42,090 nucleotides of DNA, from positions 1 to 42,090 of the forward strand of contig SICU01000002.1 of assembly GCA_009694755.1 (NCBI GenBank), in the 5' to 3' direction. The notes beneath the pieces were generated by a model. The model saw only the letters and a list, made by a program, of their open reading frames with translations, made no database searches and was not told the DNA's origin. This stretch comes from Candidatus Pacearchaeota archaeon. Its GTDB lineage: Archaea > Nanobdellota > Nanobdellia > Pacearchaeales > GW2011-AR1. Numbering within the stretch: position 1 is the first letter of the stretch; the number at the start of each line of letters is the position of its first letter. Shown one piece after another: positions 5,316 through 28,274 of this stretch. The position numbers were made by a program, and so were the translations under genes.

Positions 5316-6353
5316 TCAATCAATCTTTCTATAAATTATCTTCTTAATTTCATCTACTGAAGGCTGAAATGGATTTGTTTTAGTGCATATGTCTTTCCTT
5401 ATCTGTTCAGCATCAGCATCATATACCTTGTTATTTTCCAAATCCAAATCTTTGAAAAGCTTTTCAAAAATTTCTACAAAATTAGAGCCAGTAACATTTT
5501 TACAAGAATCAAGCTTTGTATAAACATTGCTGTGAATGCTATTCATTTTAAGGACATCAATAAAATACAAAGATACTGCGTGACTATGAGCAAGATTATG
5601 CTGTGCACCAATAGCATGAGCAATACCATGAATAAGGCCCACAGAAGCAGTGCTTTGAACAATTCCAGCAAGAAAACCAGCAATCTGAAGTTTAGCAATA
5701 GATTCTATATTCTTAGTTTTATATACGGGTAAAGCATTTTCTAAAATCAAATCTATGACTTTAGTTGCAAGCGCATCAGTTAAAATTGTTGCATTTCTCG
5801 AAGCAAGGCCCTCAATAGCATGGGAAAGTGCATCTGCAATTGAATAGGTAATTACTTTAGAAGGAGCTTCAACGCAAAATGCCGGATTAAATATAATTAT
5901 CTCTGGAAGAAGCTTAGAAGATGTAAAAATCTTCTTTTTACTCTGTTCATCAATTAAAAGCGCAAACTGACTTGATTCAGATCCACTGCCTATAGTGGTA
6001 GGTAATAAAATGCTGTTCATATTATTTTCCATCTTCAATATTTTGGCAAGATCCATAACTGCACCACCACCAACACCCATAATGATTTCTGACTTATGCT
6101 CTTCTATTTTAATTTGAGCAGAGATTTTATCTTGTATAATTGGTTCATGATTTAATATAAAGAACTCAACATTACACCCACTTAACCATGATCTCAATAC
6201 GCTTTCTTTAGAATTGTAAACGCTCTTAGAGATAATAATAAAGACTCTTTTATCAATAATTGATTTTAGAAATCTCTCTCCAGCAAGTGCTTCAAGAATC
6301 ATTCCAGGAAAGAAAGACTTAGGGAGCAGACCAAGTATTTTAGATTCAATCAT
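5316..6353 (-). CDS. iron-containing (group III) alcohol dehydrogenase family protein
   Basis: GVGGGAVMDLAK is the nucleotide-binding motif. The His-rich metal region is SHAIEG ... GLIHGIAHAIGAQHNLAHSHA. The start overlaps the ligase stop by 8 nt. Confidence 0.8.
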   Translation of the reverse strand: MIESKILGLLPKSFFPGMILEALAGERFLKSIIDKRVFIIISKSVYNSKESVLRSWLSGCNVEFFILNHEPIIQDKISAQIKIEEHKSEIIMGVGGGAVMDLAKILKMENNMNSILLPTTIGSGSESSQFALLIDEQSKKKIFTSSKLLPEIIIFNPAFCVEAPSKVITYSIADALSHAIEGLASRNATILTDALATKVIDLILENALPVYKTKNIESIAKLQIAGFLAGIVQSTASVGLIHGIAHAIGAQHNLAHSHAVSLYFIDVLKMNSIHSNVYTKLDSCKNVTGSNFVEIFEKLFKDLDLENNKVYDADAEQIRKDICTKTNPFQPSVDEIKKIIYRKID

Positions 6354-23891: not shown

Positions 23892-25280
23892 TTACGAGCC
23901 CATCATTTTTCTTAATCCTGGACTCATATCTAATGCGTGTTGTTGTGCAACACTCTGGTAAAGCTGATACAAAATCATTACTGCCAGCAATATCGACGTT
24001 CCAGAACTAATTGTTCCAAGTACATCGGCAAAAGCAGATAATGCTCCGATAGCCAAACCACCCATCACTGTCAATGGGAAGATATATCGGTTTAAGATAC
24101 TTTCTAAAATGCGTGGGTCTTTTCTAAACCCTGCAATTTGCAATCCCGACGACGAAATATTTTTCGCTTGTCCAGCAGCATCAATTCCAGTCGTCTTTAC
24201 CCAAAATATAGAGAATACAACAGAGAAGATTACATAAAATAAGAAATGATAAATTGCTTGTAAAATCTGTGAACCTAACAAACTTTTAGTTACAATTGCT
24301 TGCAATAAATTAGGCGCGCCAATCCAATAAGCAAGTCCAGATACCGGTTGTCCACTTTGGAAACCTCCAAGAATTGTAGGATGTCCCAACCAAGTTTCCA
24401 ATAAACTTCCAAACAACTGCACGTTAGCAATGAGTGCCGCAACTAAAATTACCGGTAACGTCGAAGCATAAAAGAATTGCAAAGGCCATTTTACTCCGTA
24501 TCCTCGCAAACGATCGTAGCTAAGAGGAATTTCAACTTTAAGATTTTGAGCCCAAACAACAGCCAAAAAAACTGCAACAGTCACAGCTATAACTAAAAGC
24601 GCAAGCAAAGCACTCGTCGGATCTCCTTTAATAATTGACTGAATAATTACCAAAATTTTTCCAGAACAAGGAGTGCTATCAAAGTTCATCAAACAATTAG
24701 AACCATCAGTTCCGATAAATTGGAAAAGTCCAATAAATAATTGCAAAGAAACTCCCGCAACTATAAACAAAGAAACTCCTGAACCGAAACCCCATTTTGC
24801 GACGACTTCGTCCATAAACATAATTGCAAGACCTCCAAGAATCAGTTGAAAGATTACGATAGATTCGTATCCTGGAGATGCTTCAAGTCCTTTCATCAAT
24901 ACAAAAATACACGCTTCAAAAAGTATGAAAAAAAGAGTCCCCAATTTTTGAATACCTTGAAACATTTTTTTCCCTTCTGGAGATTTTGTATCGAGACTCA
25001 GTATTCCAGAACCAACAAGTAATTGAATAATAATCGAAGATGTAACGATAGGCCCAATTCCTAAACTAATTATTGCTCCAAAATCTGTTCCAAGAATCGT
25101 AGACAAGAAATCAAATCTTTCAAGAGAGTTTTTACTTAAACCATAAAGTTTAATATTATACATAATAAAATAAACACCGAGGACTATCAAAGTCCATTTC
25201 AACTTCTGATTAAATCCTAATTTCTTTTCAGCAGGTTTTATAACTTCAGGTAAATGTTGAATAATCTGTTTCAAAACCAT
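23892..25280 (-). CDS. secY: preprotein translocase subunit SecY
   Basis: 462 aa and 10-TM pattern, with GIGPIVTSSIIIQLL, GFGSGVSLFI and LPVILVAALIAN. Confidence 0.95.
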   Translation of the reverse strand: MVLKQIIQHLPEVIKPAEKKLGFNQKLKWTLIVLGVYFIMYNIKLYGLSKNSLERFDFLSTILGTDFGAIISLGIGPIVTSSIIIQLLVGSGILSLDTKSPEGKKMFQGIQKLGTLFFILFEACIFVLMKGLEASPGYESIVIFQLILGGLAIMFMDEVVAKWGFGSGVSLFIVAGVSLQLFIGLFQFIGTDGSNCLMNFDSTPCSGKILVIIQSIIKGDPTSALLALLVIAVTVAVFLAVVWAQNLKVEIPLSYDRLRGYGVKWPLQFFYASTLPVILVAALIANVQLFGSLLETWLGHPTILGGFQSGQPVSGLAYWIGAPNLLQAIVTKSLLGSQILQAIYHFLFYVIFSVVFSIFWVKTTGIDAAGQAKNISSSGLQIAGFRKDPRILESILNRYIFPLTVMGGLAIGALSAFADVLGTISSGTSILLAVMILYQLYQSVAQQHALDMSPGLRKMMGS

Positions 25281-25303
25281 ATTTCTATTATCAAAACAAG
25301 GTT

Positions 25304-25311
25304 TTTAAATA
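25304..25311. promoter_or_regulatory. near-palindromic TATA-like box (TTTAAATA / TATTTAAA) between the divergent secY and VIT-like genes
   Basis: It begins 24 nt upstream of the secY ATG (25280) and ends 36 nt upstream of the VIT ATG (25347). Confidence 0.3.
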
Positions 25312-25346
25312 TTAACCAATATCTACTTTTAAAGAACGAATTTAAA

Positions 25347-25847
25347 ATGGCTATTAAAAAAAACAAAATATCTCTAAAACAAAAATCTTACGGCGGAGCA
25401 ATAGTTTTAGGATTAAACGATGCATTAGTTGAATTGTCGGGTGCATTAGTTGGTTTAACTTTTGCTATAAACAGTTCAAGATTAATTGCAACAGTTGGAT
25501 TAATCACGGGTTTCGCAGCTGCTCTTTCAATGGCTTCTTCAGAATATCTATCGGCAAAAGAAGAGAATCATAAAAAACCAGTCGTTTTAGCAACATACAC
25601 TGGAATTACTTATTTATTAACTGTATTAATTCTCGTATCCCCTTATTTATTTTTAACAAACAAATATTCGGCAACAGCAGTAATGGGGATTTTAGCAGTG
25701 AGTATTATCGCAATTTACACAAAATATTCCGCTTCAATTCACAAAAAAAGTTTCAAAAAGAAATTCTTAGAAATGTTCACAATTTCCGTAAGCATTGCAG
25801 TAATTAGTTTTGTATTCGGGCTTCTTGTTAGAAGAATTATTGTTTAA
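25347..25847 (+). CDS. VIT1/CCC1-family (DUF125) membrane protein, minimal form
   Basis: GGAIVLGLNDALVELSGALVGLT ... AAALSMASSEYLSAKEE is the VIT family signature. The ATG at 25347 is preferred over 25254 because the longer ORF overlaps the secY start. Confidence 0.65.
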   Translation: MAIKKNKISLKQKSYGGAIVLGLNDALVELSGALVGLTFAINSSRLIATVGLITGFAAALSMASSEYLSAKEENHKKPVVLATYTGITYLLTVLILVSPYLFLTNKYSATAVMGILAVSIIAIYTKYSASIHKKSFKKKFLEMFTISVSIAVISFVFGLLVRRIIV

Positions 25848-25921
25848 AATAAAACTTACTCACAATAAAATTCAGTCAGAAACAAAAAGTCAAAATATCA
25901 AATATCTTTGAAAATACAAAA

Positions 25922-26371
25922 TTATTTATCTTCTTTAACAATAATTTCTCCGCCCTGTTTTTTCACAGAAGCGATTGCACTTTCAGATGCAGAATGTGCA
26001 TGAATAATTAATTTAACATTTTTAGTCAGCTCTCCAACTACTTTATGTTTAAGAATTGAAATGTCATATTTTCCAGCAGATTCTTTTGCAACTTTTTTTG
26101 AAACTAAAGAGCTCATCGAAATATTTGTCAAATTAAATGTTTCAGGTTTTGGTTTTCCAAATCTTAATTTTCTAGCACGCTTACCAAAATAATCTGGAAG
26201 AGTATTCTTCAAAATCATTGTTTTTTTCTGGTCTCCTCTTTTTCCTGTTCCAGCCATACCTACTCCGCCACGATGTCCGCTTCCTCTAGCTTTCTTTTTG
26301 AATCCTCTTCCGTGCGTATGACTTCCTCTAAATCTTCTAGACCTTCTACGTTTTTTCATTTTCATCGGCAT
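25922..26371 (-). CDS. rpl15: 50S ribosomal protein L15 (uL15)
   Basis: RRSRRFRGSHTHGRGFKKKARGSGHRGGVGMAG, in the expected operon position. Confidence 0.93.
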   Translation of the reverse strand: MPMKMKKRRRSRRFRGSHTHGRGFKKKARGSGHRGGVGMAGTGKRGDQKKTMILKNTLPDYFGKRARKLRFGKPKPETFNLTNISMSSLVSKKVAKESAGKYDISILKHKVVGELTKNVKLIIHAHSASESAIASVKKQGGEIIVKEDK

Positions 26372-26562
26372 TAGTCGTCGTCTCCCCAGCTTTTACTGCG
26401 AATTTCATTCATTAAATTTTCACCAGTCAATTCATCAAGTTGGTCTTCATCAGCTTCAATAAAACTATCGGCAGAATCACACTTAAGACATTCAGCAGGA
26501 GGCAATTTTCCATAAGCAATAGCACCACAATTACATTCCCAAGCTACTTTTGATTTGTTCAT
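26371..26562 (-). CDS. acidic zinc-ribbon/rubredoxin-like small protein of unknown function
   Basis: 63 aa with the Cys pattern C10-x-C12 ... C25-x2-C28 (WECNCGAIAYGKLPPAECLKCD). By my count it has 15 Asp/Glu against 6 Lys/Arg and ends in DDD. The start overlaps the L30 stop (ATGA, 26559-26562) and the stop overlaps the L15 start (TAATG, 26369-26373). Confidence 0.6.
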   Translation of the reverse strand: MNKSKVAWECNCGAIAYGKLPPAECLKCDSADSFIEADEDQLDELTGENLMNEIRSKSWGDDD

Positions 26563-26978
26563 AACATTCTCTCCAATAATTTATTTATATGTTCTTTGTT
26601 GTCAGCAAGAACTCCCTTACCAACTCCAAAATGTTTTTTACTTTCAATTCCGCCACGAGGTGGGTGTAATCTGAAAAATGGTTTCAATCCTAAATCTGCA
26701 TAAGACTTTTTCCCAAGATTAGAAATAACTTCAGACACATCAATTTTTTTCTTTGAATCTACAGGTTGAGCTCGAAGAGTTATAAGTTTCAATAATCTTT
26801 CTTTATCAATTGTTCCATACGCAACATAACTTCTAACTTTTTGAAGTAATTTTAAATTCTCTGCGTTTTCTTCAACAAGAATTGCCGCGTATTTACGTCT
26901 CAATCTCATATGGTCAAGTGTCGCTTGGATTTTATCAGGGATTTCAACCATTCCAGCAATACGAATTACGATAATCAT
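26559..26978 (-). CDS. rpl30: 50S ribosomal protein L30 (uL30)
   Basis: MIIVIRIAGMVEIPDKIQATLDHMRLRRKYAAILV. The ATG at 26978 overlaps the S5 stop as ATGA; the longer tracked ORF (27014) would run 40 nt into the S5 CDS instead of forming the ATGA junction. Confidence 0.9.
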   Translation of the reverse strand: MIIVIRIAGMVEIPDKIQATLDHMRLRRKYAAILVEENAENLKLLQKVRSYVAYGTIDKERLLKLITLRAQPVDSKKKIDVSEVISNLGKKSYADLGLKPFFRLHPPRGGIESKKHFGVGKGVLADNKEHINKLLERML

Positions 26979-27715
26979 AATAACTTCCCCGATTGTTTCA
27001 AAGCAGCCATACAAGCGCCAGCAGAGTTGATAGTTGTTCTTCCTTGTCCTTGAGTGTAAGAATAAATATCTCTTATTCCAGCCAATCTCAAAATCTTTTT
27101 ACATTCATCTCCAATTACAAGTCCAGTTCCTTGAGGTGCAGGAATAAGTCGAATTCTTACGCTCCCACATCTTCCTTCAACTGTATGAGGGATGCTGTGG
27201 GGTTCTTTGCAAGAGCAGTCAAAATGCCCACATCCTCTTTTTACACTAATAATTTGTAGTTTCGCACGACGAATTGCTTTTTCTCTCGAAGGCAAAGTTT
27301 CTTTTGATTTTCCTAATCCAACACCAACGTGTCCATTTCTATCTCCAATAATAGCCATAGATGAAAAAGTTAAAACATTTCCTTCCATAGTTTTTTTCTG
27401 AGTTTGTCTCCATGCTCTTCTTTTTCCACCACCAAATTTACCTTTGGATTGTCCAACTAATAATAAATCTTTTTCAACAGAAATTAAACTATCTACAATT
27501 TCTGATTCAAGAATTTTTTTATGATTAGTAAGAACTTCATCGATAGATTTAATTCGCCCACTTTTTACATCTTTTCCAAGTTGAGTTTTAGGATTCCAAG
27601 AAGAAACAGTATCTTGTTTTACTGGTTCAACTTTAATTTCTACTTCCGGAACCAAAGGTGTTTCAGCGTATTCATCTTTAGCTTCTTCAACAGATTTCAT
27701 AATTTTCAATGTCAT
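26975..27715 (-). CDS. rps5: 30S ribosomal protein S5 (uS5)
   Basis: GGGKRRAWRQTQKKTMEGNVLTFSSMAIIGDRNGHVGVGLGKSKE and RLIPAPQGTGLV. Confidence 0.95.
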   Translation of the reverse strand: MTLKIMKSVEEAKDEYAETPLVPEVEIKVEPVKQDTVSSWNPKTQLGKDVKSGRIKSIDEVLTNHKKILESEIVDSLISVEKDLLLVGQSKGKFGGGKRRAWRQTQKKTMEGNVLTFSSMAIIGDRNGHVGVGLGKSKETLPSREKAIRRAKLQIISVKRGCGHFDCSCKEPHSIPHTVEGRCGSVRIRLIPAPQGTGLVIGDECKKILRLAGIRDIYSYTQGQGRTTINSAGACMAALKQSGKLL

Positions 27716-27789
27716 TGTTTAAGTTTTCCTCCTTGATTTATGGAAAATTTAAGCTTGAAAATATTATTTTCAGTATTTTGTATTTTCAT
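27712..27789 (-). CDS. intercistronic mini-ORF C (25 codons, MKIQNTENNIFKLKFSINQGGKLKQ) bridging L18 and S5
   Basis: Hand translation of the minus strand. The ATG overlaps the L18 TGA (ATGA, 27786-27789) and the TGA overlaps the S5 ATG (ATGA, 27712-27715). GGAGG lies inside its 3' end. Whether it is translated is unknown. Confidence 0.3.
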   Translation of the reverse strand: MKIQNTENNIFKLKFSINQGGKLKQ

Positions 27790-27804
27790 TGTTTAAGTTT
27801 TCCT
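27712..27804. repeat. 19-nt direct repeat (tcattgtttaagttttcct) at 27712-27730 and 27786-27804 flanking a 55-nt insert
   Basis: Read directly from the sequence. The repeat unit is the L18-stop/next-start junction (AGGAAAACTTAAACAATGA on the coding strand). Confidence 0.9.
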
Positions 27805-28274
27805 TTAATTTGATTAATAAGTTTTGCGGTTTCAGGTTTTTTATTTAATTGAGTTTCATCCGGCATAACGTCTTCTTTGCAAGGAATATCGAATCCTGCA
27901 TCTTTCAAACCTTTCACGAAAGCATAAGTTCGAGATTTAGGAACGTGTCTTATCAAACCCAAATCTAAAATTCCAGATTTAATATTTTTAGATTTATTAA
28001 CGAGCAAATATCCTAACAAATAAGCAGCAGGCAAACTTTTCAAACTTCCCTTTAATTTATCAGGCCATCCGTGATTTAGCAAATCTTTAGTGCTTACATT
28101 ACAAACTACTTTATCTTGTGCAATTTCAGAAACAACAATTTGCGCTAAAAGATATCTATTTGTTTTTCTAAATACTACTCGAGGTTTTTCAGAAGTCAAC
28201 AAATAAAGTCTCGCTTTATAGTCAGTTCTAGCTTCATATCTTCTTCGTCTTACTGTTCTTTGTACGCCTTTCAT
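27786..28274 (-). CDS. rpl18: 50S ribosomal protein L18 (uL18)
   Basis: RRRRYEARTDYKARLYLL ... PRVVFRKTNRYLLAQIV, in the expected operon position. Confidence 0.93.
   Translation of the reverse strand: MKGVQRTVRRRRYEARTDYKARLYLLTSEKPRVVFRKTNRYLLAQIVVSEIAQDKVVCNVSTKDLLNHGWPDKLKGSLKSLPAAYLLGYLLVNKSKNIKSGILDLGLIRHVPKSRTYAFVKGLKDAGFDIPCKEDVMPDETQLNKKPETAKLINQIKGKLKQ

Follow-up and report, generated by a model that had tools for sequence, protein, structure and literature searches.

A small acidic protein with a predicted rubredoxin-like knuckle, encoded between uL30 and uL15 in one lineage of Pacearchaeales

A 42,090-nucleotide (nt) stretch of DNA from a Candidatus Pacearchaeota archaeon (GenBank assembly GCA_009694755.1, contig SICU01000002.1, positions 1 to 42,090), hereafter the window, was analyzed in this study with a focus on a 63-amino-acid (aa) open reading frame (ORF) that lies between the genes of ribosomal proteins uL30 and uL15 and encodes an acidic, four-cysteine protein, referred to here as ZR for its zinc-ribbon character. 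Comparison with related genomes revealed that ZR, far from being a chance ORF, is a genuine gene maintained by purifying selection. Its sequence points to an ancestry shared with the rubredoxin-like domain of rubrerythrin, and we tentatively regard it as a dispensable acidic partner of basic ribosomal proteins or of pre-ribosomes, a reading held at less than even confidence. We found no description of a ZR protein in the literature, and members of the family are currently annotated as hypothetical or left unnamed. The genome to which the window belongs is 0.52 Mb in 28 contigs and approximately 85% complete.

ZR orthologues between uL30 and uL15 were identified in approximately 45 loci representing at least 17 genera. 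Within the genus of the window, 15 of 16 other genomes encode an orthologue with 52–73% identity, which equals the identity of uL30 and of uL15 within the genus, and the sixteenth genome, which is 76% complete, lacks a uL30 match as well as ZR. Fifteen further genomes of the genus and 20 genomes from 16 other genera have the order uS5-uL30-ZR-uL15, and all six distant metagenome homologues that were traced to their contigs (6/6) are likewise located between uL30 and uL15. At one locus (L139), a NUDIX gene stands between uL30 and ZR, and ZR still abuts uL15. A high-scoring second ZR copy away from the junction was not found in any sampled genome.

Every orthologue examined has an uninterrupted ZR frame, and the median ratio of nonsynonymous to synonymous substitutions (dN/dS, NG86) is 0.163 for ZR, compared with 0.117 for uL30 and 0.119 for uL15; the closest pairs give values of 0.01–0.11 for ZR. 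Residues W8, C10, C12, G13, P22, C25, and C28 are invariant among 34 aligned sequences, and 25 ZR columns are invariant within the genus, including E36, D38, E39, L50, E53, I54, R55, W59, and G60. The preliminary description of this DNA had proposed a gene conserved at the uL30/uL15 junction, to be examined through its presence in relatives and the dN/dS of its orthologues; orthologues in at least 17 genera and a dN/dS of 0.16 bear out the gene, its purifying selection, and its conserved position.

A profile search of 1.84 billion representative sequences retrieved 64 proteins at E ≤ 1e-3. Nearly all of them are 50–110 aa long and have in common the motif WEC-x-CG-x-(I/V)-x-Y-G-x-x-P-P-x-E-C-x-x-C-x(4)-S-F, with PE(E/D) and an acidic helix after it. 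Profile scores were bimodal across 201 genomes (191 genera) of the family to which the window belongs: 17 genomes (16 genera) scored at least 63 bits, and the lower-scoring matches (E ≥ 4e-12) fall inside ORFs of 190–220 aa, which are rubrerythrins. All 16 of the high-scoring genomes outside the genus carry ZR between uL30 and uL15, as do four more from a second sample. Among 401 genomes of the phylum, no family other than this Pacearchaeales family has a high-scoring ZR; the unpublished genomes G284 and G372 are counted here, but the loci examined come from neither of them, and none of our conclusions depends on these two genomes. A search for longer proteins gave a single match (P0071, L113:52-1251), encoded on one contig of 1437 nt, in which ZR residues 1–47 continue in frame into the central part of a Cdc48-like AAA ATPase; we judged it to be an assembly chimera. 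The two long matches of the representative search that were examined, P0032 and P0058, are membrane proteins bearing CxxC rubredoxin-like repeats in tandem and are not ZR.

The features of the gene and its surroundings are listed in Table 1. The reading frame has no internal stop, its cysteines C10, C12, C25, and C28 lie in WECNCG and AECLKC, and the product has 15 acidic (D+E) and 6 basic (K+R) residues, an isoelectric point (pI) of 4.14, and a C-terminal DDD. The ATG of ZR (26562-26560) shares the sequence ATGA with the TGA of uL30 (26561-26559), an overlap present in 12 of 12 genus loci, and its TAA (26373-26371) shares TAATG with the ATG of uL15 (26371-26369). Across the genus, the ZR/uL15 junction is TAATG or a gap of 2–4 nt in most loci, and in several other genera the uL15 ATG falls within the last ZR codons. 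GGAGAG or GGAGAGG precedes ZR in 11 of 12 genus loci (TGAGAGG in L006), and the same uL30 end (GGAGAG/LERML) directly precedes uL15 in genomes without ZR. The stop/start overlaps at both ends of ZR imply translational coupling. The length, overlaps, cysteines, charge count, and DDD end given in the preliminary description were therefore all confirmed, its proposal of coupling at both ends gains support from the overlaps and from Shine-Dalgarno-like runs before both starts, and its statement that uL30 is normally followed directly by uL15 holds for most genomes checked outside the family. No direct repeats flank positions 26371-26562, so that ZR is not a mini-cistron produced by duplication of the junction, and an Rfam scan of positions 25000-28000 gave no match. 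In two genus genomes (L016:2103-2222 and L023:1209-1315), approximately 100–120 nt separate ZR from uL15, and this spacer opens with a short ATG-led ORF.

Table 1. Features of the ZR gene and its surroundings in the window (positions in nt; strand relative to the window).
Feature	Position	Strand	Basis
ZR gene, 63-aa acidic Cys4 protein, stop included	26371..26562	-	ORF and translation
Rubredoxin-like knuckle domain, residues 6-37 (C10-x-C12-G13 and C25-x-x-C28)	26452..26547	-	Profiles, AF2, Foldseek
Acidic helix (approximately residues 39-56) and acidic tail (57-63)	26374..26451	-	AF2, alignments
ATGA overlap, uL30 stop and ZR start	26559..26562	-	Read in sequence
TAATG overlap, ZR stop and uL15 start	26369..26373	-	Read in sequence
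GGAGAG, Shine-Dalgarno-like, 7-12 nt before the ZR ATG, in the last uL30 codons (LERML)	26569..26574	-	
GGGGAG, Shine-Dalgarno-like for uL15, from the ZR Trp-Gly-Asp codons	26382..26387	-	
uL30 gene, upstream neighbor	26559..26978	-	PF00327; start taken as the ATG at 26978, aligned with orthologues
uL15 gene, downstream neighbor	25922..26371	-	PF00828
VIT1-family gene between uL15 and SecY	25254-25847	+	Pfam

Profile comparisons indicate that ZR residues 4–40 are probably homologous to the rubredoxin-like C-terminal domain of rubrerythrin. When the ZR family was compared with five Pacearchaeal rubrerythrins by hhalign, ZR 4–40 was paired with the rubrerythrin C-terminal domain (96.1%, E = 3.3e-9), with a one-residue gap in the first knuckle. 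PF21349 (RUBY_RBDX) is matched by 21 of 57 ZR family members with a best E of 2.7e-9, the window protein alone (P0001) giving a weak match of 14.8 bits against a cut-off of 26.5, and a profile search of the PDB retrieved 9fj2 (E = 0.0054). Of 34 members whose position was verified, 33 have CxC as the first knuckle; CxxC occurs in a few members (P0014, P0025, L131). The only Pfam matches of P0001 and the 57 members were RUBY_RBDX, DUF7130, DUF7129, and one CFC. Neither P0001 nor any of the 57 members matched PF00301 (rubredoxin), which was also not found in this genome, and none matched a ribosomal-protein Pfam model.

The AlphaFold2 (AF2) model of ZR has predicted local distance difference test values of 81–85 at residues 11–30, strands at residues 6–10, 15–18, and 34–37, and low confidence in the tail. 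Foldseek superimposed this model on 9fj2 with a root-mean-square deviation of 0.9 Å over 35 columns (probability 0.99, E = 0.35), and the search against the PDB gave no match at E ≤ 1e-3; besides rubrerythrin, it returned MCM zinc ribbons, a generic fold likeness. As modeled, the knuckle fold appears to be of the rubredoxin type. The rubredoxin-like Cys4 knuckle suggested earlier is thus supported by family profiles, hhalign, and AF2/Foldseek, the profile searches and structure prediction recommended at that time having recognized a rubrerythrin-type knuckle domain. The contrast drawn there with basic zinc-ribbon ribosomal proteins also stands, given the lack of a ribosomal-protein Pfam match and a pI of about 4.

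Several known systems resemble ZR in part. The rubrerythrin C-terminal domain (PF21349; PDB 9fj2, 1ryt, 1b71) has in common with it the pattern W-x-C...C-G-x(3)-Y/H-G-x(3)-P-x(2)-C-x(2)-C-x(5)-F/Y and the predicted three-strand knuckle fold. Different from rubrerythrin, ZR stands alone without the diiron four-helix domain (PF02915 was not found in any sampled ZR genome), has CxC in place of CxxC in its first knuckle in nearly all members, carries an added acidic helix and tail, and is encoded in a ribosomal-protein operon. Stand-alone CxxC rubredoxin-like proteins of 46–54 aa from other DPANN families (L078-L100), which the ZR profile matches at E values of 1e-9 to 1e-11 per genome, are similar to ZR in size, domain, and short C-terminal helix, but their knuckles are of the canonical CxxC type, they lack the strong acidity of ZR, and they are in no case encoded near uL15. 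The ribosomal proteins eL37, eL40, eL42, eL43, eS27, eS31, and uS14 are, similar to ZR, small Cys4 ribbons co-expressed with ribosomal proteins; these are basic, universal in archaea, and assigned to their own Pfam families, whereas ZR is acidic, restricted to one clade (17/201 genomes, 16/191 genera), and repeatedly lost.

Non-ribosomal residents of the archaeal ribosomal-protein superoperon, such as SecY, adenylate kinase, and RNase P subunits, are co-translated as ZR would be, but ZR is far younger and narrower in distribution and is located exactly in a stop/start overlap. The bacterial FYDLN_acid family (PF09538) has, like ZR, a zinc ribbon followed by an acidic region. P0001 did not match PF09538 at E values up to 1; an ESM Atlas feature search returned mostly unnamed clusters, the nearest named one being FYDLN_acid (0.91), which we treat as a lead only.

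The history of ZR was traced on a tree of uS5, uL30, and uL15 from 73 loci, which was built on 511 columns with the quick search of IQ-TREE and rooted with other families. Clade A comprises 25 loci, none with ZR (support 99), and clade B comprises 41 loci, 27 with ZR and 14 without (support 96, SH-like approximate likelihood ratio test), the earliest branch of which has ZR. The simplest history suggested by this tree is that ZR was gained a single time, by the ancestor of a sub-clade within one Pacearchaeales (DPANN) family, and later lost in several lineages. The subtypes of the tail track the species tree, which fits vertical descent. A lineage-specific insertion, which the preliminary description had offered as a fallback, therefore proves to be the correct description of the gene.

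The AF2 helix that follows the knuckle spans residues 39–49 or 39–56, and across the family only its acidic character is retained. The ending DWGED/DDD is conserved within the genus only, with other genera having an acidic end or an acidic stretch followed by a Lys-rich one. Total ZR length ranges from 47 to 105 aa, and the pI is 4.05–4.5 in most members and 4.05–5.9 across the family.

In 14 genus loci, the Gly codon of the Trp-Gly pair in the ZR tail is GGG in nine and GGA in five and is never GGT or GGC, and GGG accounts for 6% of the Gly codons in the operon. A GGAG, GAGG, or GGGG run lies 5–15 nt before the uL15 ATG at nearly every ZR 3′ end. The Gly codon bias and the Shine-Dalgarno-like runs together indicate that the end of ZR owes its form at least in part to the uL15 ribosome-binding site. 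It had been suggested that the acidic tail mimics the C-terminus of the ribosomal stalk protein (aP1/P1/P2). We reject this possibility because there is no conserved C-terminal peptide: the tail is variable, its extreme C-terminus being conserved only within the genus, and its codons double as the uL15 ribosome-binding site, which removes the basis of the suggestion.

The junction that ZR occupies was classified in 40 further family genomes picked by uL30 score, one of which had no uL15 match. Of the resulting 39 junctions, 19 are insert-free, four carry ZR (including L139 with its NUDIX gene), and 16 carry other ORFs, which identifies the uL30|uL15 junction as an insertion hot spot in this family. 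In all 11 single-ORF inserts checked, the ORF begins within a few bases of the uL30 stop.

The other occupants include a GNAT acetyltransferase (L119), DUF5680 (L129, L121), arrays of two or three ORFs, and recurrent families without assignment (L114/L117/L150, L143/L149, L030/L148); the loci L029, L030, and L036, compared earlier, follow the same insert pattern. Three small ORFs stand in tandem between uL30 and uL15 at L141:1810-2556, and the first two of them end in GRML and GGML, resembling the ERML of uL30, which would fit a duplication of the junction at every insertion.

How ZR might act can be outlined as follows. By the simplest history, it entered the 4-nt ATGA overlap of uL30 and uL15 once, and it has stayed directly upstream of uL15. 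Ribosomes that finish uL30 would restart on ZR and then pass to uL15, so that ZR would be made at roughly the level of a ribosomal protein. At such levels it may serve as an abundant binding partner of basic ribosomal proteins or of pre-ribosomal particles, with the knuckle as a structural zinc (or iron) module and the acidic helix shielding a basic segment, for example the extension at the N-terminus of uL15 as this chain is made immediately downstream; in the window this extension is strongly basic and rich in Lys and Arg. In eukaryotes, dedicated escorts accompany individual ribosomal proteins, namely Acl4 for uL4, Sqt1 for uL16, Yar1 for uS3, and Tsr2 for eS26. A functional analogy with these proteins, in which an acidic surface captures a basic ribosomal protein, possibly during its synthesis, can be proposed, while ZR has no sequence or fold relation to them. 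We know of no dedicated escort encoded within an archaeal ribosomal-protein operon. Because DPANN genomes are minimal, a small gene kept for a long time in the most conserved operon is probably useful to its host.

Several observations weigh against ZR as a partner of ribosomal proteins. Contact of ZR with ribosomes or ribosomal proteins is itself a proposal. Lys-rich tails, together with a pI of 5.3–5.9, occur in seven of the 34 aligned members, namely P0022 from a metagenome and six loci from genomes, and such tails do not fit a purely acidic escort. At least four losses are forced by well-supported branches of the tree and eight are counted by parsimony; this repeated loss, with 14 of 41 clade members lacking ZR, means that ZR is not a core component. 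Sister lineages carry unrelated and equally coupled ORFs at the same junction, and position alone is therefore weak evidence of a ribosomal role. Finally, the nearest homologues of ZR, the rubrerythrin domain and the 50-aa CxxC proteins, are found in redox gene contexts.

This last point leads to the alternative that survives best, which we consider possible though somewhat unlikely: ZR would be a passenger with a non-ribosomal metal or redox job inherited from a rubrerythrin-type ancestor, such as electron transfer by a small Fe/Zn(Cys)4 protein, a part in the response to peroxide stress, or metal buffering, and the overlap would be a permissive, highly expressed parking place of which ZR is the oldest resident. 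The apparent homology of ZR to the Fe(Cys)4 domain of rubrerythrin speaks for such an origin, as does the occurrence of enzymes and other ORFs at the same junction in sister lineages. In other DPANN families, CxxC relatives of 46–54 aa adjoin genes of rubrerythrin, superoxide-reductase-like, and ferredoxin-thioredoxin-reductase-like proteins, and a redox ancestry of ZR is likely because of this neighborhood. Observations at L087:874-2153 and L094:1501-1941 comprise a cluster of rubrerythrin, a 50-aa rubredoxin-like protein, and a superoxide-reductase-like protein and, in one case, a fusion of the small rubredoxin-like protein with a ferredoxin-thioredoxin-reductase-like domain.

No sampled genome combines ZR with full-length rubrerythrin, the latter being present in 0 of 27 ZR genomes, 2 of 14 ZR-less members of clade B, and 10 of 25 members of clade A. 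The difference between 2/14 and 0/27 is not significant, and this exclusivity is confounded and was not counted as evidence because clade B as a whole is nearly rubrerythrin-free (2/41); the lack of co-occurrence may be only phylogenetic. A passenger of this kind is harder to reconcile with the absence of the known clients of a rubredoxin-like carrier, since PF02915, PF01880, and PF02943 (rubrerythrin, superoxide reductase, and ferredoxin-thioredoxin reductase) were not found in the 17 genus genomes. It also has to accommodate a near-invariant CxC knuckle that is unlike all redox rubredoxin domains seen in this analysis, and a purifying selection as tight as that on the neighboring ribosomal proteins. 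Overall, ZR is probably neither a redox protein nor a structural ribosomal protein.

A new lineage-specific structural protein of the mature large subunit, the second alternative, is improbable. Its appeal is that ZR is encoded within a block of large-subunit genes with coupling at both ends, that several archaeal ribosomal proteins are small metal-ribbon proteins too, and that the Lys-rich tails of the 7/34 aligned members could contact rRNA. Against this, most members have a pI of about 4, no ribosomal-protein family is matched, the gene is confined to approximately 8% of the genera of one family, and within the clade ZR was lost repeatedly while uL30 and uL15 changed little. A relay cistron, in which the peptide would be irrelevant and the ORF would only hand ribosomes on from uL30 to uL15 over the site of an old insertion, is close to refuted, because even though the uL15 ribosome-binding site has visibly left its mark on the tail and all other junction occupants keep the same coupling, a dN/dS of 0.16, the invariance of four cysteines, one Trp, one Gly, and one Pro in at least 17 genera, a recognizable domain that folds in prediction, and the lack of a duplicated junction around ZR all oppose it.

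Returning to ZR as a partner of ribosomal proteins, a more specific scenario can be drawn, which we offer as speculation and think unlikely in its entirety. The uL30|uL15 overlap would act as a landing pad that has repeatedly captured foreign ORFs with their coupling kept. ZR would be the earliest of these to have been domesticated, a knuckle derived from rubrerythrin that became a new DPANN-specific factor made one-for-one with the large-subunit proteins and escorting the basic N-terminus of nascent uL15.

Some further observations concern the surrounding operon. Pfam identifies uS5 upstream of uL30 and SecY downstream of uL15. The VIT1-family gene on the opposite strand is present in 8 of the 11 genus loci first compared, the remaining three loci ending before SecY; we take it as unrelated to ZR, as it is conserved within this genus only and SecY directly follows uL15 in other ZR genera. 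A 53-kb metagenome contig (L065) encodes a Lys-tailed ZR and, in addition, ORFs of 93–129 aa with no Pfam match (478-1990, 5776-6165) between uL5/uS14, uS14/uS8, uS8/uL6, and uL15/SecY. Shorter uL30 proteins, from ORFs of 113–137 aa, were observed in G019, G021-G023, and many family genomes; they match in two pieces, with approximately residues 76–95 missing.

For annotation, the ZR family deserves its own model, defined by the motif WEC-x-CG ... PP-x-EC-x-x-C and the acidic helix. Location in a ribosomal operon is unsafe evidence of ribosomal function in these organisms, whose operons appear to offer new genes a platform for expression. Binding of ZR to uL15 or to pre-ribosomes, if it occurs, would make ZR a rare example among archaea of a ribosome-biogenesis factor specific to one lineage and a natural case of an operon neighbor capturing the next protein during its synthesis. 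Should the escort scenario hold true, ZR would represent the first dedicated ribosomal-protein escort encoded within an archaeal ribosomal operon.

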